Of a stretch of 64,000 bases of DNA, positions 35,113 to 62,336 are shown in pieces. The stretch is taken from contig CAYNRE010000005.1 of the NCBI GenBank assembly GCA_964399535.1, positions 460,371 through 524,370 on the forward strand. The letters run 5' to 3'. Within the stretch, counting starts at the first letter, position 1. Each line of letters starts with the position of its first letter. This DNA comes from an uncultured Pirellulales bacterium. Its GTDB lineage: Bacteria > Planctomycetota > Planctomycetia > Pirellulales > CAYNRE01. The translations under genes and the position numbers were made by a program. The notes beneath the pieces are model-generated. The model was not told where the DNA came from and did no database searches. It saw only the letters and a program-made list of their open reading frames with translations.

Positions 35113-35115
35113 TTC

Positions 35116-39009: not shown

Positions 39010-39047
39010 CGGGGCGAAACGGAAAGCACGATTCATCGGGAGCCAAC

Positions 39048-39812: not shown

Positions 39813-39937
39813 CGGCCGGGCGGCCGCGGTCGAATCTGGCAACTACGGAAACTTCGAGTCCCTAGACGGCATGTCGCACGAGCCGCCCTCCGGCGCACCG
39901 CTAAACAGTCGCACGCATCCATCGCACCAAGCCAGCT

Positions 39938-41421: not shown

Positions 41422-41463
41422 CGCGGCAGGTCGCTGCGCCGACGTGCCACTCCGCACCCCGAC

Positions 41464-44117: not shown

Positions 44118-44518
44118 GCTGCACCGTCTTGGCGGAAGAACACCCGAGGCCGGACCGACCGGCCTGGGTGCGGGCACCGCCAGGCCAGCCGGTCGGCGTG
44201 CACACGGCGGGGCTTCGGCGGGACGTCGGTCGGACCTGGCCTTGTGGGCCAACGCCCAAAATGCCGGATCCCCCCGATAGTGCTATCTCCCGAGTGTCTT
44301 CCAGCATAATCAAAATGGCGGCAAAAGCACGCGGTCTGGGAGCGGCAAAACTGGTTTCTCAGGCGGGCGGGCGGCCGGCTCGAAAACCCACCTGCCCGCC
44401 GCCGAGTGGTACACTTACAGTTTCGGGGGGCCTACTGGCCCGAACGTCGCCGCGACACGTCTGCCCAATCGTTCCGAAGGCCAAAGCCGCAAACGTTTTG
44501 GCTGGGAGCCGTTTAACG

Positions 44519-44683
44519 ATGAAGCCCGGTCGGTGGATAGCGCTGGCGATTGCCTCGCTGGGCGGCGGCCTGGTGCTGGCCACCCTGGGGGCGGCCCAGC
44601 CCGGGCCGAGCACTACCGCCAGGACGAACACGGCGAGCCGATTCGAGCCATCTCGAGCTGACCCCTCGCGCGGGCTTCGGTGA
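44519..44683 (+). CDS. Small hypothetical secreted/membrane peptide (54 aa)
   Basis: MKPGRWIALAIASLGGGLVLATLGAAQPG looks like a signal or TM segment. Its TGA overlaps GTG 44680 of the next gene. Support is weak. Confidence 0.3.
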   Translation: MKPGRWIALAIASLGGGLVLATLGAAQPGPSTTARTNTASRFEPSRADPSRGLR

Positions 44684-46998: not shown

Positions 46999-47096
46999 AA
47001 TAAACAGAAAGCCGCGGCACGGCCCGCAACGCGGTGAGCGGCTCGCACAGGCGGAGCGCTGCCGCGGGGCCGATCGCGCGAGGCCTCGAATCTGTC

Positions 47097-48663: not shown

Positions 48664-49434
48664 TTACGACGGGCTTTCCAAGCCACCGAGGCGGCGTCCG
48701 CGTGCCACCAGCGCCCGGCGCACTCCTTCCCAGCCTGGCATCGCGGGCGGGTAGGAAACAATGTTTAATTCGTCGAACCAGGGCACGAATTGCTCCTCGA
48801 TCCATTCAATCTGCGGGCAAAGCATGTGGCGATGCACCTTTCGCCCCTCGTCTTCCTCGTAGGTCCAGGTGATGCCGGTGATGTAGACCCGGCCCGACCA
48901 GGGAGACGCCGCGTCGTGGTAAGGCAGAGGGCAGCCCGAGATCAACCGCGGGTCGGCCAGCGGTAAGAAACAGGTTCCTCCGGGACGGGTCCAACGGGCC
49001 AGATTCGCCAGCACGGTCCGCACGTCGGTCATCGACTCGACCAGGCCGTAGGCATACCACATGCAGGAAACCAGGTCCCAGCACCCATCCCAGTCGGGCT
49101 GGGGATCTCGAAAGTCGGCTTGGCGAAGTTCAATTTCCGGGTTGGCTGCCCGGGCTCGTTCGAGCATGGCGGGCGAAAGGTCGAGCCCGGCTCGCAGCGT
49201 GCCGGGGAACTGGGCCAGGAAGTAGCCGGTGCCGCAGGCTACATCGAGCCAACGGTGGCCATCGCTTAGGAGCTGGCCGAGCAGTTCGACTTCGAACTGG
49301 GCGTCGCTACGTCCCAATTCGGAGTGCACGAACCGGCGCTCGTAGTCGGCAGCGTATGTCGCGTCGTACAACCGCAGAATCTGCTGGCGGTCCAACGAGC
49401 CTCTCCTTATTGATTTCCGCGCCTCGGCCAGCAA
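48664..49434 (-). CDS. Class I SAM-dependent methyltransferase (TylM1/DesVI-like layout)
   Basis: The layout is YDATYAADYERRF..., motif I WLDVACGTGYF, GLDLSPAML, ADFRD and DLVSCMW, then a C-terminal lid. This is reminiscent of sugar N-methyltransferases. The subfamily is inferred. Confidence 0.85.
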   Translation of the reverse strand: MLAEARKSIRRGSLDRQQILRLYDATYAADYERRFVHSELGRSDAQFEVELLGQLLSDGHRWLDVACGTGYFLAQFPGTLRAGLDLSPAMLERARAANPEIELRQADFRDPQPDWDGCWDLVSCMWYAYGLVESMTDVRTVLANLARWTRPGGTCFLPLADPRLISGCPLPYHDAASPWSGRVYITGITWTYEEDEGRKVHRHMLCPQIEWIEEQFVPWFDELNIVSYPPAMPGWEGVRRALVARGRRLGGLESPS

Positions 49435-49498: not shown

Positions 49499-50338
49499 TC
49501 AACTCGCCGCGGGCAGCGCGGTCTCGCTGGGCGGGACCAGGCAGCCGGCGGCGATTACTTCTTCCCAGGTGCGCTGGCGAACCACGTACCCGCGCCTCCC
49601 CAGGCTGGGTACCTCGCGCGGCCGCTCGAAAAGCTGGTAATCGTGAAAGAACGCATCGCTCACGGCGAAGCCCTCGATCTCCTCGGGCGAAACGCGAATC
49701 CAGTGCTGCAAGGGTGCCTCGCACGGAACGCAAATACACGAGGCCGCCACCCGAACCCGGTCCGACTGATTCGGGGGCGAGCCATGCACCAGCCGGCCAT
49801 CGTAGAGAAGTGCCTCGCCGGCTCGCATCGGCAGCGCGACGCCGTAGGCGCTGGTCAGCCGTTCCAGCACCTCCTCGAGCGGGCAAGCATCGGCGTGGGG
49901 ACGAATCGGGTCTCCCAGGTGCTGGCTGCCCGGAATGACCACCATGGCACCGTTGACGGCATCGACGTCGACCAGCGGAATCCAAACGTGCACGGCCAGA
50001 AAGCGAGTTTCGTCGACGAACGACCAGTCTTGATGCATGCGCATCGCGCTGTCGGCCAGCCCGGGCTCTTTAACCATGAAGTTCGTCGTGCAGATTCGAT
50101 AGCCGGAAAGCAACGGCTCCAGGCGGGGCCCGAGCTGGGCGGTAAAACGCGCGTAAATCGCCTCGCGCAGTGGCCGGTTCGGGGCGTACATCGAGGCGTG
50201 GAACCCGCCCACCGGGGCTTGTCCCTGTCGGCAGTAGAAGCTCAGCAACTCGGCCGCTTCCTCGGCGCTCAGCAGCGGCACCACCGCGTAGCCGAGCCTT
50301 CGCCAGGATTCGGTGGCCAGGGGGCTCATCGTGATCAT
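49499..50338 (-). CDS. PhyH-family Fe(II)/2-oxoglutarate dioxygenase (paralog 1)
   Basis: Motifs: MRMHQDWSFVDE (HxD), WIPLVDVDAVNGAMVVIPGSQHL, LLYDGRLVHGSPPNQSDRVR (distal His, Arg). Confidence 0.85.
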   Translation of the reverse strand: MITMSPLATESWRRLGYAVVPLLSAEEAAELLSFYCRQGQAPVGGFHASMYAPNRPLREAIYARFTAQLGPRLEPLLSGYRICTTNFMVKEPGLADSAMRMHQDWSFVDETRFLAVHVWIPLVDVDAVNGAMVVIPGSQHLGDPIRPHADACPLEEVLERLTSAYGVALPMRAGEALLYDGRLVHGSPPNQSDRVRVAASCICVPCEAPLQHWIRVSPEEIEGFAVSDAFFHDYQLFERPREVPSLGRRGYVVRQRTWEEVIAAGCLVPPSETALPAAS

Positions 50339-50526
50339 GCGGGTAAAGTTCGCCGAGCCAAACCGTCGGAAAGGGATGGATGCAGCAAGCGATCGCGCCG
50401 GCGGTGCTGCCGCCGTCGAGGGGCGCCTTGGGGCGAGCCATCCTAACGAGCGCGAACGCTTCGATTATAATCGGCCAGGATGCACGTGGCGAATCCGCGG
50501 CGCGATCCAACGGACGGACCTTCGTT

Positions 50527-50564
50527 CTTCCCGAGGGGCGTGCCTGCTGGCCACCCTCGGGAAG
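50527..50564. promoter_or_regulatory. Perfect 11-bp inverted repeat in a divergent promoter region
   Basis: CTTCCCGAGGG-N16-CCCTCGGGAAG lies about 60 nt upstream of ATG 50626 and about 190 nt upstream of the divergent PhyH start at 50338. Its function is unknown. Confidence 0.4.
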
Positions 50565-50625
50565 CGACTACCTTTCGACTACGGCCAACCAACTCCACCG
50601 GATCGCTTCGCCAGGACGGGACGCA

Positions 50626-51396
50626 ATGAAACTCCGCAACTTCGGCGGGCGAGGCTATCCGCTGCTCGCGGCGGTCGCCGCAATGTTACTGGGCGGGATT
50701 CTCTGGATCGCACTGGGCCCGCGACGGACCCCGTCGCCGCCAGGGCCCCCCGCTTCGGCGCCGGGTTCGCAGCCGATCGCGGCCGGCGACGCTAGGAGCG
50801 GGCCCGAATCGCCGAATCCAGGCAGCGACGCGCCACCGCAACCGGCGGCCGCCCCGGGCCCTCTCGACCTGGAGTCGACGGGCGAAACTCTCGCGGCCCT
50901 CGACTCCCTGGTCGGCAGTCGCGTGGCGGTTGTCGTGTTCCTGGGAACCGACTGCCCGATTGCCCAGGCTTGCTTACCCAAGCTGCGCGAGGTGCAAACC
51001 CGGTTCGCCCCGCAAGGTGTCGTGTTTCTGGCGGTCTATCCGCACCATCACGAAACGCTGGCCGAGGCCCAGCAACATGCCGAGCAAGCCGGGCTCAAGT
51101 ATCGTGTGCTCCGCGATCGCCACCAACGGTTGGCCGATCGGTGGGGGGTTGCCCGGGTGCCCACGGTGTGCGTTCTCGACCGCTCAGGCCGCGTGGCCTA
51201 CCAGGGGAGCGTGGTCGAACGGATCGGGGCCCACCGTCCGGCGGGCGGCCGCGAGCACCTGGCCCTGGCCATTGAAGAGGTGCTGCGCGGAGAATCGCCC
51301 TCGCTGGCTCGGACACCGGTCGATGGCTGTCTGCTCGATCGCAGCCCCGCCGCAACCGAAGCTGTCGGCCAGGCCGAGCTGGCCCCCGCTGGGTAA
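50626..51396 (+). CDS. Membrane-anchored thioredoxin-fold (redoxin/AhpC-TSA-like) protein
   Basis: An N-terminal helix (YPLLAAVAAMLLGGILWIAL) and a Pro-rich linker are followed by VAVVVFLGTDCPIAQACLPKLREVQTRF...VVFLAVY...VPTVCVLD. It has C-x5-C rather than CxxC. Confidence 0.7.
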   Translation: MKLRNFGGRGYPLLAAVAAMLLGGILWIALGPRRTPSPPGPPASAPGSQPIAAGDARSGPESPNPGSDAPPQPAAAPGPLDLESTGETLAALDSLVGSRVAVVVFLGTDCPIAQACLPKLREVQTRFAPQGVVFLAVYPHHHETLAEAQQHAEQAGLKYRVLRDRHQRLADRWGVARVPTVCVLDRSGRVAYQGSVVERIGAHRPAGGREHLALAIEEVLRGESPSLARTPVDGCLLDRSPAATEAVGQAELAPAG

Positions 51397-51606
51397 ATTG
51401 CCATCGTGCGTCGCGCCGCGGGTCGGCTCTCCGCGTGGCGTCGACTTTTTCAGGCGACCCAAGGGCGTGCGTCGGCCTGGCGGCGGCGTTGGCTTGGACC
51501 TGCGCAGCGTGGCAACTAAACTAGCAGGATCGTTAAGCCCGCTCGTGGCCGGGGTGTGCGCCGGGGCCGCAGGGCAATGCAGCCGTTGAGGGAAGCACCT
51601 ACCACG

Positions 51607-52593
51607 ATGACCCCGCACCTGTCGGTCGTCATTCCGGTTTATCGAAGCCGGGCCACGCTGCCGAGCCTGCTTGCGCGGGTCGTGGACTGCCTCGAATCGA
51701 CGGCCGGCCGGCCCTGGGAAGTGATTCTGGTCGACGACGGAAGTCCCGACGACTCGTTCGTGGTGCTCGACGAACTGGCTCGGCGTTACGGCAGCCGGGT
51801 GCGAATCGGGCAATTGACCCGCAATTTCGGCCAGCACGCGGCCACGCTCTGCGGCATCAGCCATGCCCGGGGCCTCTGGGTGGGCACGCTCGACGACGAC
51901 CTGCAATACCAGCCCGAAGATTTGTTGCGCGCTTGGCAAGCGGCCGAAGCGGACAGTTACGACCTGGTTTACGGTCGGCCCCGTCGGGGGAATCATCCGC
52001 CGCTGCGGCGTTGGCTCTCGAGCGTGGGGCGGTGGCTCAGTTGCCGGGCCCTGGGTACCCAGGCCCACCCCAGTTCGCTCCGGGTGATGCGCGGTTCGCT
52101 GGCGCAGGCGCTGGCCGGCTCGGCGACCTCGAATCCGATTCTCGACGGCGTACTGTTGCAGTTGACCAGCCGAGTTGGCGCGGTCGATGTGGACCACTTG
52201 CCGCGGCAGCAAGGCCGTAGCGGTTACACCTACGCCAAACTGCTCAGCTTCTTTTTCACGCTTCTAACCACCTATTCGCTGTTGCCCCTGCGCCTGTTGG
52301 GGGTCTTGGGGCTGGCTTCCGTTGCGGGGGGCAGCGCTCTGGCCGCTTGGGCGCTCGTGGCCCGGCAAACCGGGCCCCTCTGGGCCGCCGCGGCGCTCAC
52401 ACTCTTGGGCGTACAGCTGCTGACCCTGGCGATCGGTGGAGAATACTTGGGGCGCATCCGGGCACTCGCCCATGGGCTGCCCCCCTACGTCGAGCGCAGC
52501 CCAGTGGCGGCTCGCTCACCGGGCGGCCATAGCCCGGCGGCCGCCGAGGAAGGCCGCTTTTGGCCGGCGGCGACGGAACCGATCGATGCCTAA
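51607..52593 (+). CDS. Polyprenyl-phosphate sugar synthase-type GT2 (ArnC/GtrB-like) with C-terminal TM helices
   Basis: Motifs: LSVVIPVYRSRATLPSLLARV, EVILVDDGSPDDS, TRNFGQHAATLCG, LDDDLQYQPEDL, and two C-terminal helices. The start could be 51556, 51577 or 51607. Confidence 0.85.
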   Translation: MTPHLSVVIPVYRSRATLPSLLARVVDCLESTAGRPWEVILVDDGSPDDSFVVLDELARRYGSRVRIGQLTRNFGQHAATLCGISHARGLWVGTLDDDLQYQPEDLLRAWQAAEADSYDLVYGRPRRGNHPPLRRWLSSVGRWLSCRALGTQAHPSSLRVMRGSLAQALAGSATSNPILDGVLLQLTSRVGAVDVDHLPRQQGRSGYTYAKLLSFFFTLLTTYSLLPLRLLGVLGLASVAGGSALAAWALVARQTGPLWAAAALTLLGVQLLTLAIGGEYLGRIRALAHGLPPYVERSPVAARSPGGHSPAAAEEGRFWPAATEPIDA

Positions 52594-52624
52594 CAGCCCT
52601 TTGAAGGTTTCATCGGGCTGCGTT

Positions 52625-52668
52625 ATCGCAGGGATGCGATGCCGGAATAACGACGTAAGTCGTTATTC
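52625..52668 (+). other. Two adjacent perfect hairpins with GNRA-type loops in an intergenic spacer
   Basis: ATCGCA-GGGA-TGCGAT (52625-52640) and GAATAACGAC-GTAA-GTCGTTATTC (52645-52668) sit in a locally AT-richer stretch between the GT2 and the aminotransferase gene. Confidence 0.5.
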
Positions 52669-52791
52669 TGCGAGCCACGACGAGCTTTGCTCGGCGCTTG
52701 GCGAGGTTGAGATTTGCCACGAGGGCATATTTCAACCGACTGCAAAGCTTGGCCAGCCATGCCCGCACTCCCCCGTAGCGGCGATCCCGGG

Positions 52792-53955
52792 ATGAACGAG
52801 CCGATTCCGTTCTCCCGGCCTTGCCTGGTCGGCCCGGAGCTTGACTATCTGGCCCAGGCCGCGCGGCAGGGGAAACTTTCGGCCGACGGGCCGTTCACCG
52901 CTCGCTGTGCCCAGTGGCTCGAGAACACGCTCGGACTCGAGCGGGTGCTGATGACCCATTCGGCCTCGGGGGCACTCGACCTGGCGCTGCGCACCTTGGG
53001 GCTGGCGGCTGGCGACGAGGTACTGCTCCCCTCGTTCACCTACGTGGCCACGGCCAACGCGGTGCTCGCCAACGGTGGCCGGCCGGTGTTTGTCGAGATC
53101 GAGCCCGAGACCCTGTGCCTCGATCTGGAAACCATCGAAGCGGCTCGCACCGCCCGCTGCCGGGTTGTGGTGCCGGTGCACTACGCGGGAGCAAGCTGCG
53201 ACCTACCGCGGCTGAGCCGCTGGGCAGCCGAGCGTCAAATCGACGTCGTGGAAGATGCTGCCCAGGCGGTCGGCTCGCGATTTGCCGACCGGGCCCTGGG
53301 TGGCTGGGGCGCCCTGGGCGTTTTCAGTTTCACCGATCAGAAGAATGTTACCGGGGGGCAGGCTGGCGCGCTGACGATCAATCGGGCCGATCTGTTCCAG
53401 CGAGCCCAGACGATCCGCGATCAGGGGACCGATCGGGCCCGCTACTTCCGCGGGGAAGTGCCCGAGTACACCTGGACGCTTGCTGGCGGGAGCTACGCGC
53501 CCAGCGAGTTGTGTTGCGCGTTTCTGCTCGCTCAGCTCGAGCAGTTCGAGGCGGTTACTAACCGCCGGCGCGAGCAGTGGCAATTTTATCGTGCCGCCCT
53601 GGGCCCGCTGGAAGCGCGAGGCGTGGTGCGGCTTCCCAAGACCCTGCCTGGGTGCGAACCCAACTTTCACCTGTTCTATTTGCTGGCGGCCGATCGCCTC
53701 GAGCGCGATCGACTCATCGCTCATCTAGCCCAGCAGGGAATTACGGCCCCGTTCCATTTCGTTCCGCTCCACTTGTCGGCCATGGGAATACGGCTGGGCT
53801 ACGGCCCGGGCGACCTTCCTCGCACCGAAGACCTGGCAGGGCGAATCGTGCGGTTGCCGCTGTTTCACGACCTGACGCGGCCCCAGCAGGAGCGCGTGGT
53901 GGGGGCCGTGAGGGAGTTCTATCGTGGGAATTTGCCGACGCGCCCCGCACCCTAA
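52792..53955 (+). CDS. DegT/DnrJ/EryC1-family sugar aminotransferase, WecE-like (NDP-4-keto-6-deoxyhexose 4-aminotransferase type)
   Basis: The N-terminus MNEPIPFSRPCLVGPELDYLAQAARQGKLSADGPFTARCAQWLE parallels E. coli WecE (IPFNAPPVVGTELDYMQSA...GKLCGDGGFTRRCQQWLE). SASGALDLAL, VPVHYAG and FSFTDQKN (PLP Lys region) are present. Confidence 0.9.
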   Translation: MNEPIPFSRPCLVGPELDYLAQAARQGKLSADGPFTARCAQWLENTLGLERVLMTHSASGALDLALRTLGLAAGDEVLLPSFTYVATANAVLANGGRPVFVEIEPETLCLDLETIEAARTARCRVVVPVHYAGASCDLPRLSRWAAERQIDVVEDAAQAVGSRFADRALGGWGALGVFSFTDQKNVTGGQAGALTINRADLFQRAQTIRDQGTDRARYFRGEVPEYTWTLAGGSYAPSELCCAFLLAQLEQFEAVTNRRREQWQFYRAALGPLEARGVVRLPKTLPGCEPNFHLFYLLAADRLERDRLIAHLAQQGITAPFHFVPLHLSAMGIRLGYGPGDLPRTEDLAGRIVRLPLFHDLTRPQQERVVGAVREFYRGNLPTRPAP

Positions 53956-53985
53956 AATCGCGCGCTACGGGCGCCGATTTTGATT
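53954..53985 (+). terminator. Candidate Rho-independent terminator after the aminotransferase gene
   Basis: AAAATCG-N14-CGATTTT starts in the TAA stop and is followed by GATTG. This is one of the few T-runs in the window. Confidence 0.5.
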
Positions 53986-54164
53986 GCCCAGCTCGGCCCG
54001 CGGCGCGGTACGCGATGGCGCCGCCGGTTGCTGGGCGGCGGCTGGGGTTCTCGATTCCCTTATTGCCGGAGTCAGCGTAGGCTAGAACCCTGGGCGCGAG
54101 GAACCACGCCGCCGTCGGATCTGAAAGATCTCTGCCCAATGCCAAGTCCTTGCGGATACCTGCA

Positions 54165-55049
54165 ATGAGCCAACCAAGCCTTTCCCAACCTTGCTCGCCC
54201 CCTGCAGGGGCTGCTACGAGCCGTTCGTTTCTCGACCCCGGATTGGCCGAGTGTATGGAGCGCGACGGCTACGTAGTGCTTCCGGTCCTCGATGCGGATT
54301 CGATCCGCGAGGTGATGGCAATTTACTGCGGGGCAGGCGTGACCTTTGAACAAGGGTGGCACACCGACATGTACAGTGCGAACCTCGATTATCGCCGGGC
54401 AACGCACGAACAGGTCGGTAAGATCTTCGCCGACAGAATCTTGCCGCTATTGAACGGGTTTCGCTTCTGCTGTGGTAATTTCGTAGTCAAAGAACCCCAT
54501 ATCGAAAACACCGTACCCCTGCATCAAGACTGGACGATTATTGAACATGACCAGTCGCGTTCACTGAACGTGATTTGCGCCATGATCGACGTTCCCCCAG
54601 ATCACGGTCAACTGCGGGTCTTGCCAGGAAGCCATCACGCTCCCAAACGCGTTAGTTTCGGTCCGGTCGATCATCTGCAGATCGCCCACCTCCTCCCGTT
54701 AATTGAGAAGCAATACGTCGTCCGGCTCCAGCAGCGAGCCGGTGAGGCGCTGATTTACGACGGACGGCTACTGCACGCCTCTGATCGAAACCGGTCGGAT
54801 CGCGTGCGCGTCTGCTACTCGGCCTCGTTCGTACCGCAGGAATCACCGCTGCGACATTATTACAAGGATCCGCAAGCGCCCGATGTTTTGGAAGAGTACG
54901 AAATCGACAGCGACTTTTTCTGGAAGCACAAGCTCGGCGAGCGCCCTCAAGAGGGAAAGCTTGTCCGCGCCATGCCTCACGTCGATTCCCCGATCACCGA
55001 ACAGCACCTCGTGCTGTGGAACCGTGCCCGACTTACAAGCCCAAGTTAA
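54165..55049 (+). CDS. PhyH-family Fe(II)/2-oxoglutarate dioxygenase (paralog 2)
   Basis: Motifs: VPLHQDWTIIEH (HxD), MIDVPPDHGQLRVLPGSHH, LIYDGRLLHASDRNRSDRVR. Confidence 0.85.
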   Translation: MSQPSLSQPCSPPAGAATSRSFLDPGLAECMERDGYVVLPVLDADSIREVMAIYCGAGVTFEQGWHTDMYSANLDYRRATHEQVGKIFADRILPLLNGFRFCCGNFVVKEPHIENTVPLHQDWTIIEHDQSRSLNVICAMIDVPPDHGQLRVLPGSHHAPKRVSFGPVDHLQIAHLLPLIEKQYVVRLQQRAGEALIYDGRLLHASDRNRSDRVRVCYSASFVPQESPLRHYYKDPQAPDVLEEYEIDSDFFWKHKLGERPQEGKLVRAMPHVDSPITEQHLVLWNRARLTSPS

Positions 55050-55247
55050 CTTCGTCTCCATTCGCCGAGCCCCGCCCTGGCCGTTGTTTCGCAGACCACC
55101 GCCCCAGAGAGGGCCGGCGACCTATTTCGACTCCGCTTGAAGATGTCAATGGGACGCGAGATCGGCAGAATGCGATACCGAAATCGCAAGATGAGTCGCA
55201 GCTTCGCGAATCGGGCCAACGCCCCAGTGCCGGTCTCCGAGCGGCCG

Positions 55248-57335
55248 CTAGGCTTCTTTTGCCGACGGAGACCGATCGCGGCCGGCCAGGATCAGAATGG
55301 TTGCAACCAGTGCCAGCGCAAGCAGCGACACGATAAGCCCGAGCCAAAGCCCGCTCGGCCAGTGCGAGATTACAACGCGATGGCGACCCGCCGATATCGG
55401 CACGCCGAGAAACGCATGGTTCGTCCGGAGCACATCACAGCGCTGGCCGTCGACCCAGGCGCAAACATCGTCGCAGTAGGAATCGGCCACGACCAGTAAG
55501 GCCGCGGACGACGTTTCCACCTCGACCAAAAGGTTGCCCGCGTCGAGCTGGCGCAGCATGACCTGGCTGGGCCAGTCCGTGGCCGATAATGCCGTCGGCA
55601 GGGGGCGCTCGATCACTGCCTGTCGTTCGGGATCGAACTGGTCGGATCGGAGCAGGGCCAGTCGATCGTCCGAATCGGCCGCCAGCTTGGTTTCACCGAC
55701 CAGCCAGGCCCGCGGATGCGTCGGCGATGCCCGCAACAGTCGCACGGGCCGCTGGGCCAGGGGGCGCCAGCGCGGATCGAGCAGGTCGTGCCCGGGTCCG
55801 GGGGCGATGGCCTGATGGGTAACCGCGGCCAGCCGCGCCGAGCGTTGCCAGGCCCCACCCGGCAGGGCGCGGTACAACTCGACCAGCCAGCGAGGGCTGA
55901 CCGTGGAATCCTGGCTGTAGAGCTGCGCCGAGGGCAGCTCGAACAGCAGGTTGTAATCGGCCGGGGCGCTTTGCAGCGCGCGTTTGGCCAGCGATTCCGA
56001 GAGCCGGAGTTGTCTGCTCTCGTTTGCTTCGAGGGGGCTCATCGACCAAAGCCGCGTGTGCTCACCCGCGGTGGCGAGCCGCGCCAGCCTGGACCCGACC
56101 TGATCGTAGAGATTCTCGTGAGAAAGGTACAAGTCCAGGCGCTGAGACGTTGCCAGCAAGAGCAGTCCCAGCGGCAGTAATGCGCGACACGGCGCGCGAA
56201 GTGGTGCGTCGGCCGCGCTCGCCGAGGCAGCGAGTGCGTCGGCCCCAAAGGCCGACACGACCGCTACGGCCAGCACCCACCAGGAGAGGTACATTGAGGC
56301 CCAGCGAAACCAGCTATAGACCGGCAAATGATCGAGCAGGTCCGACAATGGCGTGTGCGCCGCCAGAAGCAGCCCGGCCAGCCCCAGGGCCATCCACATC
56401 CGCAGCCAACGATTCCGCAGAGCCAGCACCAGGCTGATCGCCAGGCATCCGACGAGAAACCCGTTCGCGGCGGCGCCAGCGAGCGCGCGCGGCAACGAAG
56501 CGTCGGCGACGTCGTAAACCTGTTGCCCCGGCTGCCAGAATTGGTCCCATCGCAGCCGAATCATCGCGGCGGGCTGCTGGGCTCGATTCGACTGCTCGAA
56601 GTATTGGTACAGCGGCACCAGTTGCACCGCGGTCAGGCACGCTGCTGCCACGAACACGGCCGCGGGCATGAGCCATCGTAGCGGCCAAAAAACCCTGTGC
56701 AGCACCAGGCAGGCGTACGCGCCCTGGAGCGTGAACAGAACCAGGGCGGTGTCGTACGAACCGGCCAGAATCATGAGCGCATTGACCAGCGCCAGGGTGC
56801 TCAGTGAGCGCCGTCGGCCCTCGGCGACGCGGTCCCAAAGCCAGAGCGCCGTGGGAATCCAGGCCAAGACCACCAGGCGAGCCACGGCGGCGTGGACCCA
56901 CTGCAGGGCGGGCGCCGTCATGAACACGCTGGCACCCCAGACACTAGCCAGCTGCCCCAGGCCGCGCCCGCGGAGGTAGCTGGCCATGCCCAGCCCGGCG
57001 ATCAGATAGTGCAACGCCACGAACACGTCGTGAGCCTTGGGAGTAGGCCAACCTACATAGAGCAAGAACCCTGGGTAGAAGATGCCGGTCTGCCCCTCGG
57101 CGGTAAGCGGAAAACCACAGGCCAACAGCGGGGTCCACCAGGGAAACGTGGCGCCGCGGATTTGCTCGGCGGCGTAAATTCGCCGCGGCACGTCGATGGG
57201 CGCCGTATCGGCTAGGTAAAGGTTGCCCTCCGACCAAACCAGCGGCCCGGCGTAGACGAGCCAGATCACGAATACCCCGAGCCAGCTCGGCGCCAGGCGA
57301 GCGGGGTCGGGCAAGGAATGGGGCGCGGCGGTCAT
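55248..57335 (-). CDS. Large polytopic GT-C-like membrane protein (YfhO-like)
   Basis: The 695-aa protein has about 14 helices. The N-terminal region FPWWTPLLACGFPLTAEGQTGIFYPGFLL resembles YfhO-type proteins. The C-terminal ~230 aa are extracytoplasmic with a final TM helix. The family is assigned from memory of the motif only. Confidence 0.6.
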   Translation of the reverse strand: MTAAPHSLPDPARLAPSWLGVFVIWLVYAGPLVWSEGNLYLADTAPIDVPRRIYAAEQIRGATFPWWTPLLACGFPLTAEGQTGIFYPGFLLYVGWPTPKAHDVFVALHYLIAGLGMASYLRGRGLGQLASVWGASVFMTAPALQWVHAAVARLVVLAWIPTALWLWDRVAEGRRRSLSTLALVNALMILAGSYDTALVLFTLQGAYACLVLHRVFWPLRWLMPAAVFVAAACLTAVQLVPLYQYFEQSNRAQQPAAMIRLRWDQFWQPGQQVYDVADASLPRALAGAAANGFLVGCLAISLVLALRNRWLRMWMALGLAGLLLAAHTPLSDLLDHLPVYSWFRWASMYLSWWVLAVAVVSAFGADALAASASAADAPLRAPCRALLPLGLLLLATSQRLDLYLSHENLYDQVGSRLARLATAGEHTRLWSMSPLEANESRQLRLSESLAKRALQSAPADYNLLFELPSAQLYSQDSTVSPRWLVELYRALPGGAWQRSARLAAVTHQAIAPGPGHDLLDPRWRPLAQRPVRLLRASPTHPRAWLVGETKLAADSDDRLALLRSDQFDPERQAVIERPLPTALSATDWPSQVMLRQLDAGNLLVEVETSSAALLVVADSYCDDVCAWVDGQRCDVLRTNHAFLGVPISAGRHRVVISHWPSGLWLGLIVSLLALALVATILILAGRDRSPSAKEA

Positions 57336-57561
57336 CGCGACGGATCCGGGGCGGCCGGAAACCCCTCGAGCGGCCGCGCGGGATGAGCCGCCGGTTTCCA
57401 AGCGTGCGCAGGCGCCGGGCGCCGCATCAGCCGTTTGCAGGCCACGGCCAACCTCACGCGACCGCCGGCGGGAGCCAAGCGGGCTCGGCCAAGCGTCCTT
57501 GCCACGAGCCTGACAGGCGGAAAAGCGATCGGCAAAGATTTCTGCCCTAGGAAGCGGGCGA

Positions 57562-58377
57562 TCAGTTCTGCTCTTCGGGCAGCGGTGCGGCGAACACGCC
57601 CCGCGCCGACCGCCCCCGCGGGCGCTCGCCGGGGATGTAGTCCCAGTAGAAGGTGGGGTCGACCGCGAAGACCTCGACCGCCGTGGGATCGACGCGGTGG
57701 TAGTACAACAGCGACGATTGCGGCCGGGCCAGCACGCAGCCCACCGCCAACCGCTCTCGGCCCGAGCGATTGATACCCGAGCCGTGCAACAACCGCCCGT
57801 CGTACACCACGGCCTGGCCCGGTACCAGGGGCACGCTCCGCAGCCGCTCGGGACAGTGGCGCGCGACCCAACCGCGCCGCGGGCAAGGGTCTCCGTGCGA
57901 GCGGGGAAACGGGCACTCGCGGTGCGAACCCACCACCACTTCCAGGCAGCCGTTCTGCTCGTCGACCGGCATCAGCGGCGTCCACACATTAAGCGTGAGA
58001 TCGGTTGTTTCGTCGACGAAGGCCCAGTCGAAGTGCAGGGCCACTTCCGTGCCGTCGGGCTGCGGCGACTTGGCCAGGTAGTTGGCCACCACGATGCGCC
58101 AGCCGGGCAGCACGGTATCGATGGACGGTTGCAGGTGCCCGGAAATCTCCTGGAAGATCCGGCGGCGCTCCTCGGCGCTGGCCAGATACATCGAGGCTTG
58201 AAACCCCGTCACCTCCGTGGCCGCGCGCTGGTACGAACTGCGCAGCGCGCCGAGAACGCTCGGCAAGGCCAGCTCGACGACCGCGTAACCGTCGCGCTCC
58301 AAGGCCGACCAGAGCGCGCTGGAATCTCCTGGGCTAATCGAGGGGGCCGGCGGCCCTGGCTGAGGCGAACCGCTCAT
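57562..58377 (-). CDS. PhyH-family Fe(II)/2-oxoglutarate dioxygenase (paralog 3)
   Basis: ATG 58377 overlaps the wzt-like stop (ATGA). Motifs: VALHFDWAFVDE (HxD), WTPLMPVDEQNGCLEVVVGSHRE, VVYDGRLLHGSGINRSGRER. Confidence 0.8.
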   Translation of the reverse strand: MSGSPQPGPPAPSISPGDSSALWSALERDGYAVVELALPSVLGALRSSYQRAATEVTGFQASMYLASAEERRRIFQEISGHLQPSIDTVLPGWRIVVANYLAKSPQPDGTEVALHFDWAFVDETTDLTLNVWTPLMPVDEQNGCLEVVVGSHRECPFPRSHGDPCPRRGWVARHCPERLRSVPLVPGQAVVYDGRLLHGSGINRSGRERLAVGCVLARPQSSLLYYHRVDPTAVEVFAVDPTFYWDYIPGERPRGRSARGVFAAPLPEEQN

Positions 58378-59924
58378 GACATTTCCCACTCGCAGTCCAT
58401 GCCGACCAGGTCGCGGATCCAGGTGCGAATATTGCCCGACTGCGAGGGGGGTTCGGTAACCTGGAAGAAATGGGGCCGGCTTTCCCAGCCCACGTCGGCC
58501 AGGGCCGCGCCGGTGGCCGCCTCGCCCAGACCAACCTTCATGGCGTAACGGCCGGCCCGCAGCGACAACCGGTCGATGGTTCCCCGCCAGACATGGCGGC
58601 CAGGACCAACCGAGAGCGTTCGGTCGTCGATACCCGTCAGCACCGTCGCAATATGGGTCGACAGGTCGGCTGTGCACAGCGTGAACCCGCAGACGATGGC
58701 CTCGAGCGGTTCGAACACCTCAAACACCACGAAGACCCGGGCCGGCTCGCCATAACGCAGCTCGCCGCCGCTGGCCGCTTCAATTCCCACTGAGCGAATC
58801 GCCACCGCGGCCGTGGCCAGCGCCGTTTTCACCTCGGCCCGCTCCAGGGGTTCGGCGTCGGGCACGCCCTCTGGGTCCGCGGCGGCGCACCGGGCGACCG
58901 CGCCGACCAGGTCCGCGGCCGGCTCTGAATCGGGTTGTGGGTTGGGTCGCGTGGCGGGGTCGTTTTCCAGATCGCCAAAGTAAATCGCCTCCCCCCCCCG
59001 AGTGATTGGCTCGTCGGCGGTTTCCGGCTGCGGCACGGGTTCGTCGCCGGGCACTTCGGCCGCAGATTCCCACTGGGTGCTGTCCAGGGGCGCCGGCGCC
59101 GTCTGGCGGGCGTCTGCGGAGGTCGAGGGCACCTCGGGCGCGGCGGCACCGGTCAGTTCCGCATGGTCGAGCTCGGCCGAGAGCTCGACGTAAAAGTGAA
59201 TCGCGTCGGTCGCCGGGCCATCGAACACCAGGCGACCGTGATGGATCACGATTGCTCGCTCGCACAGCGTTTGAATGGCCTGCATGTCGTGAGCCACGAG
59301 AATCAGCGTACCCCGCTGTTCGTGAAAGGTTTTCAGGTGCTGGCGGCAGCGGCGGCGGAAGGACAAATCGCCGACCGCGAATACTTCGTCGATCAGGAGA
59401 ATGTCGGGTTGCAAGTGGGCAGCCACCGCGTAGCCCAGCCGTGCCCGCATGCCGGTGCTGTAGGATTGGACGGGCGAGTCGATGAACTCGGCCAGATCGG
59501 CGAAAGCCACGATGCTGTCGAACAATTCGGCCGTGCGGCTCCGCGGCAGGCCCAGCAGGGCCGAGTTGAAGTAGACGTTTTCGCGCCCCGAAAGCAGCGG
59601 GTTGAAACCCAACCCCAGCTCGGTAATGGCGGCGATCTTGCCCTCGGTGGTGACCCGCCCCCGGGTAGGCGTCAGGCGGCGCATCATCAGCTTGAGCAAG
59701 GTGCTTTTGCCCGCCCCGTTGTTGCCGATGATGCCGACGCTTTCGCCGCGCTCGATGGTGAAGTTGGCGTTCTGAACTGCCCAAAAATCGCCCGGCAACA
59801 GCTCGGTGCTTTGGGCCGGCCGGGCAAGCATCCGCCGCGCCAAGTCTTCCAGCGCGTACCAGGCCGACCCGGTAAACCGCCGGTTGTATTTTTTCCAGAC
59901 GTCGTCGACGTGGATAGCCGGCAT
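58374..59924 (-). CDS. wzt: Polysaccharide ABC exporter ATP-binding protein (Wzt/TagH-like) with long linker and C-terminal beta-rich domain
   Basis: Walker A is GIIGNNGAGKSTLLK, the signature is YSTGMRARLG and Walker B is ILLIDEVFAVGD. It has the N-terminus typical of Wzt/TagH (VWKKY...ALEDL...FWAV). About 110 aa of acidic/Pro-rich linker and about 150 aa of C-terminal domain follow. Confidence 0.9.
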   Translation of the reverse strand: MPAIHVDDVWKKYNRRFTGSAWYALEDLARRMLARPAQSTELLPGDFWAVQNANFTIERGESVGIIGNNGAGKSTLLKLMMRRLTPTRGRVTTEGKIAAITELGLGFNPLLSGRENVYFNSALLGLPRSRTAELFDSIVAFADLAEFIDSPVQSYSTGMRARLGYAVAAHLQPDILLIDEVFAVGDLSFRRRCRQHLKTFHEQRGTLILVAHDMQAIQTLCERAIVIHHGRLVFDGPATDAIHFYVELSAELDHAELTGAAAPEVPSTSADARQTAPAPLDSTQWESAAEVPGDEPVPQPETADEPITRGGEAIYFGDLENDPATRPNPQPDSEPAADLVGAVARCAAADPEGVPDAEPLERAEVKTALATAAVAIRSVGIEAASGGELRYGEPARVFVVFEVFEPLEAIVCGFTLCTADLSTHIATVLTGIDDRTLSVGPGRHVWRGTIDRLSLRAGRYAMKVGLGEAATGAALADVGWESRPHFFQVTEPPSQSGNIRTWIRDLVGMDCEWEMS

Positions 59925-59928
59925 GCCG

Positions 59929-60855
59929 TTACGGGGCCTGCTGCGAAGTGCCCGGCCGGGCGCCGGTGGCCGAGCGCTCGCGCTGGTACTGGGCCAGGCG
60001 CTGGGCGAGTTGCTCGCTGGTAAAGGGGGACTGGGGCGTGCACGCAAGTTCAAGACAAGGGCACGCCCTGGGCCGCTCGCCGAGTTGGGCTTCGCGCCAG
60101 TAGAAATCTTCCGCCACGGCATAGGTTTCCACTTCCCGCGGCGAAACGCGGTAGTAGTGCCGCAGTTGGGCCTCTTGGGGAATGCCGACCCCCACCACCG
60201 CCACGCGGGGCACCGCACCCCGGTTAGGTCCCGAGTAATGTAGCAGTCGCGAGTGGTAGATCACCCCCTCGCCCGCCCGCAGGGGCAGTTCCAACAGGTG
60301 GTGCTCGACAATTTCCTGAGCCAGCGGCGCGTACGGCGAGCAAGCGGCATCTCCCTGGCCGTTCGGGCGCAGGTTGTCGCAGAACCGGTGGCTGCCCGGC
60401 ACTACCGCCAGGCAACCCACCTGATGATTGGTGTCGATCAGCGGCGACCAGATCGTCACGCTGGCAAACCGCGTTTCGTCGACAAACGACCAGTCCTGGT
60501 GCAGCGGCACCACGCTGGCGGGTACCGCCTGCTTCACCGCAAAGTTGCCCAGCACCAGGCGGTAGTTGGCCAGGTACCGTGCCGCCGAATCGGCCAGCGC
60601 GGCGGCAATCAAGGCGTTGACGCCCGCGCGGTAGCCGGCGTCCTGGCTCCACAGGCTCGAGTAAAACCCGTCGGCCAGGCGGCTTTCGAGGCGCTCGTAG
60701 CCCGACTGCAATAGGGCCACCTGCTCGGCATCGAGCAGCGGCACCACCACGTAACCGCGCTGGTCGAACTGGGCTTGATGCTGCGGGTCGCGCAGGGTCG
60801 GCCGGTCCACGGGCGGGCAAAACAGGTTCTGAGGTAGCGTCGGGCTAGTGGTCAT
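59929..60855 (-). CDS. PhyH-family Fe(II)/2-oxoglutarate dioxygenase (paralog 4)
   Basis: Motifs: VPLHQDWSFVDE (HxD), WSPLIDTNHQVGCLAVVPGSHRF, VIYHSRLLHYSGPNRGAVPR. Its stop lies 4 nt before the wzt-like ATG. Confidence 0.85.
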   Translation of the reverse strand: MTTSPTLPQNLFCPPVDRPTLRDPQHQAQFDQRGYVVVPLLDAEQVALLQSGYERLESRLADGFYSSLWSQDAGYRAGVNALIAAALADSAARYLANYRLVLGNFAVKQAVPASVVPLHQDWSFVDETRFASVTIWSPLIDTNHQVGCLAVVPGSHRFCDNLRPNGQGDAACSPYAPLAQEIVEHHLLELPLRAGEGVIYHSRLLHYSGPNRGAVPRVAVVGVGIPQEAQLRHYYRVSPREVETYAVAEDFYWREAQLGERPRACPCLELACTPQSPFTSEQLAQRLAQYQRERSATGARPGTSQQAP

Positions 60856-60980: not shown

Positions 60981-61044
60981 TCGTCAGTTTCATTGCCTAG
61001 CGATCAGTTTCACTGCCTAGCAATCAGTTTCACTGCCTAGCAAT
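60981..61044 (-). repeat. Three tandem 20-bp direct repeats (plus the first 4 nt of a fourth) at the wzm stop
   Basis: The plus strand reads tcgtcagtttcattgcctag / cgatcagtttcactgcctag / caatcagtttcactgcctag / caat. On the minus (coding) strand each unit reads CTAGGCAGTGAAACTGAT(T/C)G. The wzm TAG stop is the CTAG of the first unit. Confidence 0.9.
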
Positions 61045-61852
61045 TGGAGTGGTCGACGACGATCGGAATCGCCCGGCGAAACCACAAGAGGGCCAGCACC
61101 AGGAGGACCCAGGCCCCCAGGGCGACGCCGACGAACCCCCAGGGGTTCTGAGCCTGGCCCGCAACCACCCAATCGCGGGTAGCCGACAAGAGGGGCGTCA
61201 CGGGGTTCAAGGCCACGATCTTGGCGGCCAAGCCCTCGGTGGGAGGCGGGAACAGCACCGGCGTGAGAAAAAGCCAGAAGGTAGTTACCGCGGTGAGCGT
61301 TTTCGAGACGTCGCGCACCAAGGCGTTCAGCGGCGCAAGGAACACCCCCAGCGCCGTTCCCAGCACAATCAGGCTCAGCACTCCCAGGGGCGCCAGCACG
61401 ACCGTGCCGGTTACCGGCAACTGATACCACCAGATTGCCAGCACGATCAGAATCATCTTGAACCCGAAGTGGTAGATCACCTCGCCCATGCCGGCCAGCA
61501 CGAGCGCCTCGGCAGGAAAGGCGGCCCGAGCCAACATCGGCAGTTCGTCGATCAGCCGATTGATCGGCATATTGAGCGATTCGATAAAGGTGGTCCAAAG
61601 CATCATGCTGAGCAGCACAAAGGCGGGATAGGGCAGGTCCAGCTTCGGGTCTTGAATGATCCGGGCATGTTGAATCAGCGTGCACCAGGCGGCCGTTACC
61701 AGCGGAGGAATGAACGCCAGCAGCGCGCCGAGGAACGAACTGCGGTACTCCGTGAGCAACGTACGGCGGAGCATTTCCACCGCCAGATGGCGCGAGGCAA
61801 CCAGGTCGCGGCCCAACTCGCGCAGGGCGACTTGAATTCCGGCGGTGTTCAT
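61037..61852 (-). CDS. wzm: ABC-2 type polysaccharide exporter permease (Wzm-like)
   Basis: ATG 61852 gives a 271-aa protein. The N-terminal LRELGRDLVASRHLAVEMLRRTLLTEYRSSFLGALLAFIPPL is the ABC-2 permease entry motif. Six helices are present. Confidence 0.85.
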   Translation of the reverse strand: MNTAGIQVALRELGRDLVASRHLAVEMLRRTLLTEYRSSFLGALLAFIPPLVTAAWCTLIQHARIIQDPKLDLPYPAFVLLSMMLWTTFIESLNMPINRLIDELPMLARAAFPAEALVLAGMGEVIYHFGFKMILIVLAIWWYQLPVTGTVVLAPLGVLSLIVLGTALGVFLAPLNALVRDVSKTLTAVTTFWLFLTPVLFPPPTEGLAAKIVALNPVTPLLSATRDWVVAGQAQNPWGFVGVALGAWVLLVLALLWFRRAIPIVVDHSNC

Positions 61853-62336
61853 CGCCGGCGCGCGCAGGCCGCGCCCCCCGGCTGGCTCGCACCCGCCGCC
61901 GGCCACACCTTCGCCAGGCACACCTTCGCCGTGCGCAAACTCCGTCCCCCTGGGTTCGCAACCCAGCTCACGGGCACCGAGCGCCAAGGCCCCCGGCGCG
62001 GAACCAAACCACGCCCTTTCCCGACCCCGCGGACTACCCCGCTCGCCGCGAGAAACCCAGAACCGGACAAATCGCCTAACTCAACGCTGGCAATCGACTT
62101 TCGTCTCCGAGTATACTTGCCTCCAGGGTCTGAATCAAACCACGCGACTCAGGCGCCATGACCGGCGCGGGGGGCACCGCGAGACGAAAGTTCGCGGAGA
62201 GGCCAGCTACCCAAGAACCGCCCGGCGACCAAGGCCTCCGCCACGGCACCGATTGCCTCCGTAGGTGAAAACCGCAGTTCGGGCCAGGGCGCGCCGACCC
62301 CGCCTTGCCGATCGCACTTCGGAAACCGGACTGCCC

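Follow-up and report, generated by a model that had tools for sequence, protein, structure and literature searches.

Four PhyH-family oxygenase genes of separate ancestry in a surface-glycan gene cluster of an uncultured Pirellulales bacterium

Enzymes of the PhyH family act on very diverse substrates, among them acyl-CoA, amino acids, terpenoids, and ectoine. Sugar tailoring is represented by SnoK and SnoN (PDB 5epa, 5ep9), the nogalamycin carbocyclase and C4'' epimerase, which abstract hydrogen from a sugar carbon of an already attached amino-deoxysugar (PMC12006828), and by the orthosomycin oxygenases EvdO1/EvdO2, AviO1, HygX, and EvdMO1 (PDB 4xab, 4xaa, 4xca, 6ec3), from clusters in which several PhyH paralogs tailor one oligosaccharide. 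EvdO, AviO, and HygX act on oligosaccharides, their large clefts suggesting late-stage action on the assembled saccharide, and HygX carries a variant HxG...E triad (PMC13374393). PhyH-family genes such as XAC3597, sometimes in more than one copy, are also found in the wzm/wzt LPS cassettes of Xanthomonas, in hypervariable, ABC-transporter-dependent O-antigen loci (bioRxiv 10.1101/2022.03.02.482478; PMC3130047); these are known from annotation and a transposon phenotype only, and are likened to the proteins described here at the family level. The same concept of a 2OG oxygenase within carbohydrate clusters underlies the model TIGR04324 ("sporadic carbohydrate cluster 2OG-Fe(II) oxygenase").

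The window analysed here, a stretch of 64 kb, encodes four such proteins (table 1). A sequence-only reading had reported four PhyH genes within 11 kb, and their coordinates, strands, and family all hold: Pfam PF05721 is matched by each at 68-86 bits (gathering cut-off 22 bits), with E-values from 1.4e-18 for PhyH2 through 5.9e-20 for PhyH3 and 4.3e-20 for PhyH4 to 5.8e-24 for PhyH1, and the public gene calls contain exactly the same four proteins. An HMM built from the four found exactly these copies in the window and no fifth in the remaining 52 kb, so that their clustering inside 11.4 kb is not due to chance. The HxD...H iron triad is intact in all four, with the 2OG-binding Arg at the distal His +11. 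The HxD blocks read, from PhyH1 to PhyH4, HQDWSFVDE, HQDWTIIEH, HFDWAFVDE, and HQDWSFVDE, so that the Asp is present throughout and the proteins are not of the HxA/G halogenase type, as had been recognized. Invariant positions (PhyH1 numbering) are H102, D104, G137, S138, R182, L183, H185, S187, N190, and R196; an Asn and a Lys are also invariant. The shared motifs given earlier had the catalytic residues right but were slightly over-generalized: PhyH1 has GSQH for "GSH" and DGRLVH for "DGRLLH", while PhyH4 has HSRLLH for the latter and N-R-G-A-V-P-R in place of N-R-S-x-R. Across 294 family members drawn from 64 further loci, both His, the Arg, the Asn, and the Lys are kept essentially throughout; the few departures are gaps in the alignment. 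An AF2 model of PhyH4 (pLDDT 91.6) matches MysH, SnoN, SnoK, EvdO2, AviO1, EctD, HygX, PhyH, and KanJ with a Foldseek probability of 1.0, and none of the four translations shows a visible signal peptide. While family and active sites are firmly established, we predict from these sequences, with reasonable though not high confidence, that the four gene products are Fe(II)/2-oxoglutarate oxygenases that reside in the cytoplasm and are competent for catalysis.

Table 1. Coordinates of the PhyH genes and their neighbours in the window, with the matches behind each assignment
Feature	Position	Strand	Length	Orthogroup	Details
NodU-like carbamoyltransferase	41464..43368	-			Carbam_trans_C E 2.8e-61, Carbam_trans_N E 1.1e-44; NodU-like match; coordinates are stop-to-stop, the real start lying further downstream on the minus strand
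GFO/IDH/MocA sugar dehydrogenase, UDP-GlcNAc 3-dehydrogenase-like	43086..44252	-			NCBIfam NF040723 E 7.7e-43, below cut-off
PMT_2 / ArnT-like GT-C glycosyltransferase	44680..46998	+			PF13231 E 7.5e-6, 26.7 bits (cut-off 26.1)
Radical SAM paralog A, N-terminal twitch/SPASM domain	47034..48632	+			Radical_SAM and SPASM
Class I SAM methyltransferase	48664..49434	-			Methyltransf_11/25; directly downstream of PhyH1
PhyH1	49499..50338	-	279 aa	H	Fe(II)/2OG oxygenase; triad H102-x-D104...H185, R196
Membrane-anchored redoxin / ResA-like thiol-disulfide oxidoreductase	50380..51396	+			Redoxin E 5.9e-13; ResA-like match; divergent from PhyH1
ArnC/PgfS-like GT2	51556..52593	+			Glycos_transf_2 E 2.8e-28; NCBIfam ArnC (E 1.8e-39) and PgfS best, both below cut-off
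WecE-type sugar aminotransferase (dTDP-4-amino-4,6-dideoxyhexose)	52714..53955	+			DegT_DnrJ_EryC1 E 1.3e-80
PhyH2	54165..55049	+	294 aa	O	Fe(II)/2OG oxygenase; low-GC gene
YfhO/PgfM1-like GT-C membrane glycosyltransferase	55248..57401	-			Pfam YfhO E 3.8e-10; weak PgfM1 match; convergent with PhyH2
PhyH3	57562..58377	-	271 aa	S	Fe(II)/2OG oxygenase
Wzt-like ABC ATPase	58374..59924	-	516 aa		ABC_tran E 2.6e-20; start and stop read directly
PhyH4	59929..60855	-	308 aa	J	Fe(II)/2OG oxygenase; between wzm and wzt
Wzm-like ABC-2 permease	61037..61987	-			Pfam ABC2_membrane E 4.4e-10
Radical SAM paralog B, N-terminal twitch/SPASM domain	62265..63872	+			Divergent from wzm; N_Twi_rSAM 154.7 bits

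SnoK and SnoN share the PhyH-type fold and HxD...H triad with the window proteins, and are their best PDB profile matches (E ~1e-18) and among the top Foldseek matches; however, they have only 20-22% identity and TM-scores of ~0.5, and belong to a Streptomyces anthracycline antibiotic pathway, whereas the window genes lie in a wzm/wzt surface-glycan cluster, where there is no evidence of cyclization or epimerization of the SnoK/SnoN kind. EvdO2 is the best single-sequence PDB match of PhyH4 (E 2.3e-10), with the orthosomycin enzymes at 22-24% identity. EvdMO1, a methyltransferase-oxygenase fusion, echoes the conserved adjacency of PhyH and methyltransferase genes in the window; unlike HygX, the window proteins are canonical HxD, and the orthosomycins are secreted antibiotics rather than polyprenol-linked polymers, their orthoester/methylenedioxy chemistry being unproven for the window enzymes. 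KanJ and EctD, the comparators proposed earlier, share superfamily, fold, and triad but are not the closest characterized relatives, with profile E-values of 1e-4 and 4e-8 against 1e-18 for SnoN/SnoK. None of the window proteins matches the NCBIfam EctD model, and the locus gives no sign of ectoine chemistry or of oxidative deamination. PhyH1 matches TIGR04324 weakly and falls outside it, scoring 27.7 bits (E 1.8e-6) where 150 are required, and PhyH2, PhyH3, and PhyH4 do not match it. As the nearest solved enzymes (SnoN/SnoK, MysH, EvdO2) have identities of at most 24% and TM-scores of ~0.5, specificity cannot be transferred from them.

The amino-sugar and glycan setting of the cluster, which the sequence-only reading had also proposed, is real: besides Wzm/Wzt, GT-C enzymes, and a carbamoyltransferase, it encodes a WecE-type aminotransferase above the equivalog cut-off (NCBIfam NF008687, 435.8 bits against 375), a methyltransferase related most closely, among solved structures, to the NDP-amino-sugar N-methyltransferases CalS10, DesVI, and TylM1 (E 1.7e-9 to 2e-7), and an ArnC-like GT2 with two C-terminal TM helices, the hydrophobic pair visible in the translation, which is likely a polyprenyl-phosphate sugar synthase. 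A TM segment is likewise visible in the redoxin. The two radical SAM paralogs have 48% identity to each other, A scoring 145.5 bits against N_Twi_rSAM (NCBIfam cut-off 170). The Wzt-like ATPase, whose best NCBIfam matches are TagH and galactan Wzt ATPases, continues through a Pro/Glu/Ala-rich linker into a C-terminal domain of ~145 aa. The public gene call for the Wzm-like permease is 271 aa, ~61037-61852 (L001/L002). Several of these genes have counterparts in another Pirellulales MAG locus (L004): the carbamoyltransferase (62% identity, syntenic), the dehydrogenase (synteny kept), and radical SAM paralog B (54%, likewise adjoining wzm).

The start ATG of PhyH3 overlaps the wzt stop codon (ATGA), and 4 nt separate the PhyH4 stop codon from the wzt start; PhyH3 is translationally coupled to wzt, and PhyH4 lies within the wzm-wzt export operon, which is tight. 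The order wzm-J-wzt is common to the window, L004, and L006, the latter two showing wzm-J-wzt-H-methyltransferase. A methyltransferase always follows the PhyH1-type gene (window, L004, L007, L008), and a DegT-GT2-GT-C-O module is found in L010, L068, and L069, with a membrane protein of 690-730 aa, homologous to the YfhO-like GT-C, adjoining the PhyH2 orthologs in L010 and L068. This firmly established pairing, in which each paralog keeps its own conserved module, speaks for distinct substrates or steps rather than for consecutive positions on one sugar. The wider subfamily comprises 2,394 representatives at E<=1e-30, and multi-copy PhyH genes in surface-glycan clusters recur across many bacterial Phyla; in the Bacteroidota, 5-9 paralogs surround wzm/wzt in fixed order, and fusions of two to three domains also occur. 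These habitual arrays and fusions argue that the paralogs cooperate in one pathway. The literature searched holds no biochemical or genetic data on any subfamily member.

The sequence-only reading had interpreted the four genes as a lineage-specific expansion, here taken as local duplication, whose enzymes act at successive positions of a sugar or amino-sugar. Their proximity and the amino-sugar pathway are compatible with this, as is their common membership in a loose super-group (H/J/O/S/T/N, 30-36% identity) apart from the Bacteroidota groups A-G. However, the siblings have only 34-37% pairwise identity, each being nearer to proteins of other genomes and Phyla (64%, 58%, 46%, and 44%), a result that refutes the expansion on the terms which the sequence-only reading itself had set, and no pair, triple, or quartet of them is monophyletic in any of 300 bootstrap replicates. 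PhyH1 is closest to P0004/P0005 (64%; clade in 282/300), with the L004 relatives at 52-54%. The PhyH2 orthologs (P0003, 58%; L010, 56%) form a clade in all 300 replicates and sit in DegT-GT2-(YfhO-like)-PhyH modules on contigs of 51-52% GC; the GC content of the PhyH2 gene itself is foreign to the window (56.9% versus 67.5%). For PhyH3 no close ortholog was found, the best non-self matches, from a Vicinamibacterales MAG and P0249, having 44% identity and grouping with it in 186/300 replicates, whereas PhyH4 falls in the J clade in 213/300. The MAG JAIEPU01 carries J and H on one contig and O and T on another, and the conserved partners differ between paralogs. As judged from these comparisons, the four PhyHs represent four separate, old orthogroups and neither recent duplicates nor a local burst; we therefore regard the expansion as very improbable. 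PhyH2 was probably acquired horizontally within a module containing the WecE-type aminotransferase, the ArnC-like GT2, and the YfhO-like GT-C.

In an alternative reading, PhyH4 and PhyH3, perhaps together with PhyH1 and the methyltransferase, would form a non-reducing-end cap that ends chain growth and is read by the Wzt C-terminal domain. The model for this is the methyl or phospho-methyl cap made by WbdD in E. coli O8/O9a. PhyH genes and a methyltransferase lie between or just after wzm and wzt here and in other Phyla, and the extra Wzt domain is conserved in the syntenic L004 and L006 (38-39% identity), although its Wzt_C match is weak (22 bits, under the Pfam cut-off of 30.4). That a Wzt can read a terminal modification through its carbohydrate-binding domain is well established (PMC9445017). 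No oxidized caps are known, however, and the five to nine oxygenases of each Bacteroidota cassette are far more than one cap should need, and we consider a cap unlikely. It is also unlikely that the enzymes merely lie among the glycan genes and act on something other than a carbohydrate: an acyl or isoprenoid chain such as the polyprenol carrier or a lipid anchor, a substituent of amino-acid or N-acyl type, or a peptide that the adjacent radical SAM enzymes mature. The PhyH family is named after a hydroxylase of an isoprenoid acyl-CoA and counts GriE and other amino-acid hydroxylases among its members, the cluster is flanked by two radical SAM/SPASM-type enzymes, and a Fluviicola cassette holds FabH-like and GNAT genes; but the annotated neighbours include no precursor peptide, NRPS, PKS, or acyl-CoA ligase, Wzm, Wzt, GT2, DegT, GT-C, and methyltransferase are the partners that recur from phylum to phylum, and sugar-acting enzymes top both sequence and structure matches. 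That some paralogs are noncatalytic scaffold or regulatory partners in hetero-oligomers might be suggested by the natural fusions, by PhyH-family heterodimers such as TlxI/J (7vbq), and by one Bacteroidota orthogroup with Asn for Asp (HxN). Yet every metal and 2OG ligand is present in all four window proteins, and the near-universal His and Arg residues of the 294 relatives indicate selection for catalysis, making such a role improbable.

The role that we consider most likely, with moderate confidence, is that the four enzymes oxidatively tailor an amino-sugar glycan in the cytoplasm while it is linked to polyprenol. The nearest characterized enzymes likewise work on sugars that are already joined to a scaffold. 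In each PhyH, the Fe(IV)=O species would remove a hydrogen atom from a nucleotide- or polyprenol-linked glycan intermediate at the cytoplasmic face, the site attacked being a different sugar or amino-sugar carbon, or a substituent, for each enzyme, and we infer that oxidation would precede outward movement of the product by Wzm/Wzt or the GT-C enzymes. As GT-C enzymes work outside the cytoplasm, the PhyH2/YfhO pairing limits this timing, without revealing the substrate. The outcome may be hydroxylation, or epimerization or oxidative cyclization as in the nearest solved relatives. The four genes fall in a large, biochemically uncharacterized branch of the PhyH family that is probably specialized in surface-glycan gene clusters.

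All four predicted open reading frames were recovered in the window at the coordinates and on the strands first assigned to them, and public gene calls are identical to their products (279, 294, 271, and 308 aa, here PhyH1 to PhyH4). Each scores 68–86 bits with Pfam PF05721 (gathering score 22), which bears out their placement in the PhyH family, and an HMM built from the four finds exactly four copies across the 64-kb window; since the remaining 52 kb contain no copy, the four within 11.4 kb form a real cluster. A four-way alignment gives pairwise identities of 34–37% and shows H102, D104, H185, S187, N190, and R196 (PhyH1 numbering) plus one Lys to be invariant. H102, D104, and H185 make up the HxD...H iron triad, and in all four proteins R196 lies 11 residues past the distal His, a spacing that we take to match that of the 2OG-binding Arg in human PhyH (H264/R275). 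The sequence-only reading had slightly over-generalized its shared motif strings, as the sequence is GSQH in PhyH1, and PhyH4 reads HSRLLH and N-R-G-A-V-P-R; its claim that Asp is kept in all four is right. This Asp rules out a halogenase of the SyrB2/CytC3 type (HxA/G), and the chlorinating-enzyme model TIGR01762 of NCBIfam reached 19–22 bits, far too low against its cut-off of 226.

An AF2 model was calculated for PhyH4 alone from a 57-sequence alignment (mean pLDDT 91.6, pTM 0.90). Its probability-1.0 Foldseek matches in the PDB all belong to the PhyH superfamily, at 14–24% identity and TM-scores of ~0.5, and include MysH, SnoN, SnoK, EvdO2, AviO1, EctD, AndA, EvdMO1, HygX, SyrB2, human PhyH, GriE, and KanJ. 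As had been expected, the four thus fall inside the PhyH-type 2OG oxygenases, by Pfam in four of four cases and by fold for the PhyH4 model. When the family profile was compared with PDB sequences, SnoN and SnoK came out on top (E about 1e-18), followed by PHYHD1, MysH, EvdO2, and PhyH, then EctD, and then KanJ. SnoK/SnoN and EvdO/AviO are the best PDB relatives, yet they share only 20–24% identity with the window proteins at TM-scores of ~0.5; neither EctD (profile E 4e-8, 17–19% identity) nor KanJ (profile E 1e-4; Foldseek rank 49, 18% identity) is close. The NCBIfam scan of the four proteins returned no equivalog match and, at E<=1e-3, no match to the EctD model; the sporadic carbohydrate cluster 2OG-Fe(II) oxygenase model TIGR04324 was matched by PhyH1 alone, with 27.7 bits against a cut-off of 150. 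Judged by sequence, the four would be genuine PhyH-family oxygenases, hydroxylase/oxidase in type and far from every characterized enzyme. SnoK and SnoN act on the amino sugar of nogalamycin, that is, on a sugar already attached to its scaffold (PMC12006828), and EvdO, AviO, and HygX act on orthosomycin oligosaccharides (PMC13374393); the nearest characterized relatives are enzymes for sugars already on a scaffold. The genes belong to a known kind of enzyme, and their interest lies in the uncharacterized, widespread multi-paralog cassette around them.

The four copies had been interpreted as a lineage-specific expansion, which proved wrong: each has closer relatives elsewhere than among its siblings. 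To collect relatives, 5.8 billion proteins were searched with a profile, and the paralogs were then compared with the matches by BLAST. Non-self identities were 64, 64, 54, and 50% for PhyH1, 58, 57, and 58% for PhyH2, and 43–46% for PhyH4; for PhyH3 they reached ~40% at first and 44% in a search of its own, where one match came from a Vicinamibacterales MAG. When 281 subfamily domains taken from 64 genome loci were clustered, PhyH1, PhyH2, PhyH3, and PhyH4 fell into four different orthogroups, labeled H, O, S, and J, respectively. In neighbor-joining trees (300 bootstrap replicates, capped distances), no pair, triple, or quartet of the window paralogs was monophyletic in any replicate (0/300). 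PhyH2 instead formed a clade with its homologs at locus L010 and proteins P0003, P0006, and P0020 in 300/300 replicates, PhyH1 with P0004 and P0005 in 282, PhyH4 with the J group in 213, and PhyH3 with P0249 and P0269 in 186. The orthologs come from Pirellulales, Candidatus Kuenenia, Chthoniobacterales, and unclassified Planctomycetota MAGs, one of each, and from contigs of 51–63% GC. The GC content of PhyH2 is 56.9%, against 67.5% for the window and 66–69% for its neighbors, and the contigs of its closest orthologs have 51–52%, suggesting that this one gene was acquired horizontally and recently. At a deeper level, groups H, J, O, and S join T and N in a loose super-group at 30–36% identity, apart from the Bacteroidota groups, and this is the sole sense in which the four are mutually related.

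Searched exhaustively with the profile, a set of 1.84 billion representatives gave 2,394 proteins at E<=1e-30; the best-scoring of them carry two or three PhyH domains each. Fusions of two to three domains, 550–1000 aa long, occur in many family members (proteins P0124–P0260 and L040 17667–19532), and such natural fusions suggest that the paralogs work together physically. MAGs of the Bacteroidota (Crocinitomicaceae, Flavobacteriales, Fluviicola, Dokdonia, and others) and some Proteobacteria encode 5–9 paralogs within about 10 kb (loci L013–L062, e.g., L040 9114–20449, L046, and L036). The order within these arrays is conserved as wzm–B–E–C–A–D–methyltransferase–wzt, with G and F coming next on the other strand, and identity is 49–63% inside orthogroups versus 24–32% between them. 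Among 294 relative domains, the first His and the Lys each occur in 294, the distal His and the Asn in 293 each, and the Arg in 292; alignment gaps account for the exceptions. The HxD position has Asp in 258 and Asn in 36. The 36 HxN domains correspond to one orthogroup per Bacteroidota array (E; e.g., L040 11000–11956 and L016 11013–11960), which retains the distal His, Arg, Asn, and Lys; we know of no characterized HxN Fe/2OG enzyme. Multi-copy PhyH sets around wzm and wzt, which encode the ABC permease and ATPase of glycan export, are thus a recurrent, ancient, and catalytically conserved arrangement. PhyH-family genes are routinely annotated in O-antigen and capsule loci. The literature searched contained no biochemical study of PhyH genes in O-antigen or polysaccharide loci; mentions were limited to annotation, of PhyH genes in Xanthomonas LPS cassettes.

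In the window, the surrounding genes were mapped with Pfam and NCBIfam scans. The genes wzm, phyH4, wzt, and phyH3 lie close together: the wzt ATG comes 4 nt after the PhyH4 stop, and the wzt TGA and PhyH3 ATG overlap as ATGA, read directly. An ABC2_membrane permease and an ABC_tran ATPase in one operon constitute a Wzm/Wzt pathway, with TagH and galactan Wzt ATPases, under their equivalog cut-offs, as the best NCBIfam matches of Wzt. Among solved proteins, the cluster methyltransferase is most closely related to CalS10, DesVI, and TylM1, which are NDP-amino-sugar N-methyltransferases. The cluster serves a decorated surface glycan with amino sugars and joins an ABC-transporter route with a polyprenyl-phosphate sugar/GT-C route.

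Genes of the glycan cluster in the window.
Feature	Position	Strand	Match
NodU-like carbamoyltransferase	41464-43368	-	
GFO/IDH/MocA sugar dehydrogenase	43086-44252	-	
PMT_2 / ArnT-like GT-C	44680-46998	+	
N-terminal-twitch radical SAM	47034-48632	+	
Methyltransferase	48664-49434	-	
PhyH1	49499-50338	-	
Membrane redoxin	50380-51396	+	
ArnC/PgfS-like GT2, two C-terminal TM helices	51556-52593	+	
WecE-type aminotransferase	52714-53955	+	435.8 bits vs equivalog cut-off 375
PhyH2	54165-55049	+	
YfhO/PgfM1-like GT-C	55248-57401	-	
PhyH3	57562-58377	-	
Wzt	58374-59924	-	
PhyH4	59929-60855	-	
Wzm	61037-61987	-	
Second twitch radical SAM	62265-63872	+	

The paralogs keep distinct partners in other genomes. 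The nearest syntenic locus, L004 of a Pirellulales MAG, is a compact version of the cluster with a radical SAM gene and wzm–J–wzt–H–methyltransferase–GT2–GFO/IDH/MocA dehydrogenase–carbamoyltransferase; L006 has the order wzm–DegT (sugar aminotransferase family)–J–wzt–H, and L007 and L008 have the H–methyltransferase pair. The PhyH2 orthologs at L010, L068, and L069 sit in a module of DegT, GT2, a YfhO-like membrane protein of 690–730 aa, and PhyH, and the MAG JAIEPU01 carries J and H on one contig and O and T on another. With L004 as the reference, the window resembles a two-PhyH core cassette that received a second module, made up of PhyH3, YfhO, PhyH2, DegT, GT2, and the redoxin. Different paralogs thus occur in different functional modules, and these partnerships argue against the earlier proposal of four successive steps on one sugar.

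Several further features of the window were noted. Wzt has a ~120-aa Pro/Glu/Ala-rich low-complexity linker between its ATPase and a ~145-aa C-terminal domain, and conservation of the latter is confined to L004 and L006, two cassettes of the planctomycete type. The two radical SAM paralogs flanking the cluster are 48% identical, have a Cys-rich SPASM/twitch-like domain N-terminal to the radical SAM core, and fall just under the N_Twi_rSAM cut-off of NCBIfam; L004 also has a copy, adjoining wzm. At the edge of the glycan cluster, a HisH-type glutamine amidotransferase (39905–40564, above the NCBIfam hisH cut-off) adjoins a 207-aa ORF without a family match (40840–41463); in some O-antigen clusters, HisH/HisF-like pairs are responsible for amidino sugars. 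Two very large neighboring ORFs at 32401–39009 encode a 903-aa WD40/beta-propeller protein and a 1298-aa protein with three carbohydrate-binding modules (CBM_4_9), with a GT2 gene directly downstream (38967–39812). Further upstream, a second envelope-glycan/lipid group (1195–14754) includes GT2, CDP-alcohol phosphatidyltransferase, GT4, GT9 heptosyltransferase, another PMT_2 GT-C, GT2, and an LPG_synthase_TM protein.

The PhyH genes are operonic with the exporter, and their partner genes are conserved across phyla. No signal peptide is visible in the four PhyH translations, so the enzymes are probably cytoplasmic. A sugar or amino-sugar substrate is plausible for them: in each paralog, the ferryl intermediate would abstract hydrogen at a site of its own on a nucleotide- or polyprenol-linked sugar, amino sugar, or substituent, and would do so before export. 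Hydroxylation would be the default outcome. Epimerization or oxidative cyclization may be considered as well because of the nearest relatives and the conserved PhyH–methyltransferase adjacency, and cyclization would, by analogy to EvdMO1, run by methylation and then oxidation. Tentatively, and with the balance still against it, we read the window as a four-gene form of a glycan-tailoring system that would be widespread yet undescribed, and in which sets of 2–9 anciently diverged PhyH enzymes encoded in wzm–wzt operons act as a team, possibly as hetero-oligomers, multiply oxidizing a polyprenol-linked polysaccharide before its export. The marks left by such a team could be C-hydroxylations, epimerizations, or orthoester or methylenedioxy bridges.

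The PhyH enzymes might instead make a cap that is read by the C-terminal domain of Wzt, which we regard as unlikely. Reading of a terminal modification by a Wzt carbohydrate-binding domain is an established mechanism (PMC9445017), and conservation of the C-terminal 145 aa in L004 and L006 speaks for such a role here; the Wzt_C match of the protein is weak (22.1 bits against a cut-off of 30.4). Slightly less likely again is a non-carbohydrate substrate. Least probable among these alternatives is that some of the paralogs serve as non-catalytic partners. The radical SAM/SPASM and ABC genes also brought up a RiPP or peptide reading, which was dropped as the main reading since the ABC pair is of the Wzm/Wzt type and the conserved partners are sugar enzymes.

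Each of the four copies in the window represents a conserved enzyme type of its own with a distinct set of partner genes. What was a vague annotation thereby becomes a hypothesis that can be tested, namely one paralog for one defined oxidative mark on a lipid-linked glycan. The analysis also points to culturable carriers and to candidate substrates, dTDP-4-amino-4,6-dideoxyhexoses and their N-methyl derivatives. If true, this would mean new sugar chemistry on bacterial surfaces and more C–H-functionalizing enzymes for carbohydrates; should the PhyH sets indeed act as teams, they would produce a class of heavily oxidized surface glycans chemically unseen so far.
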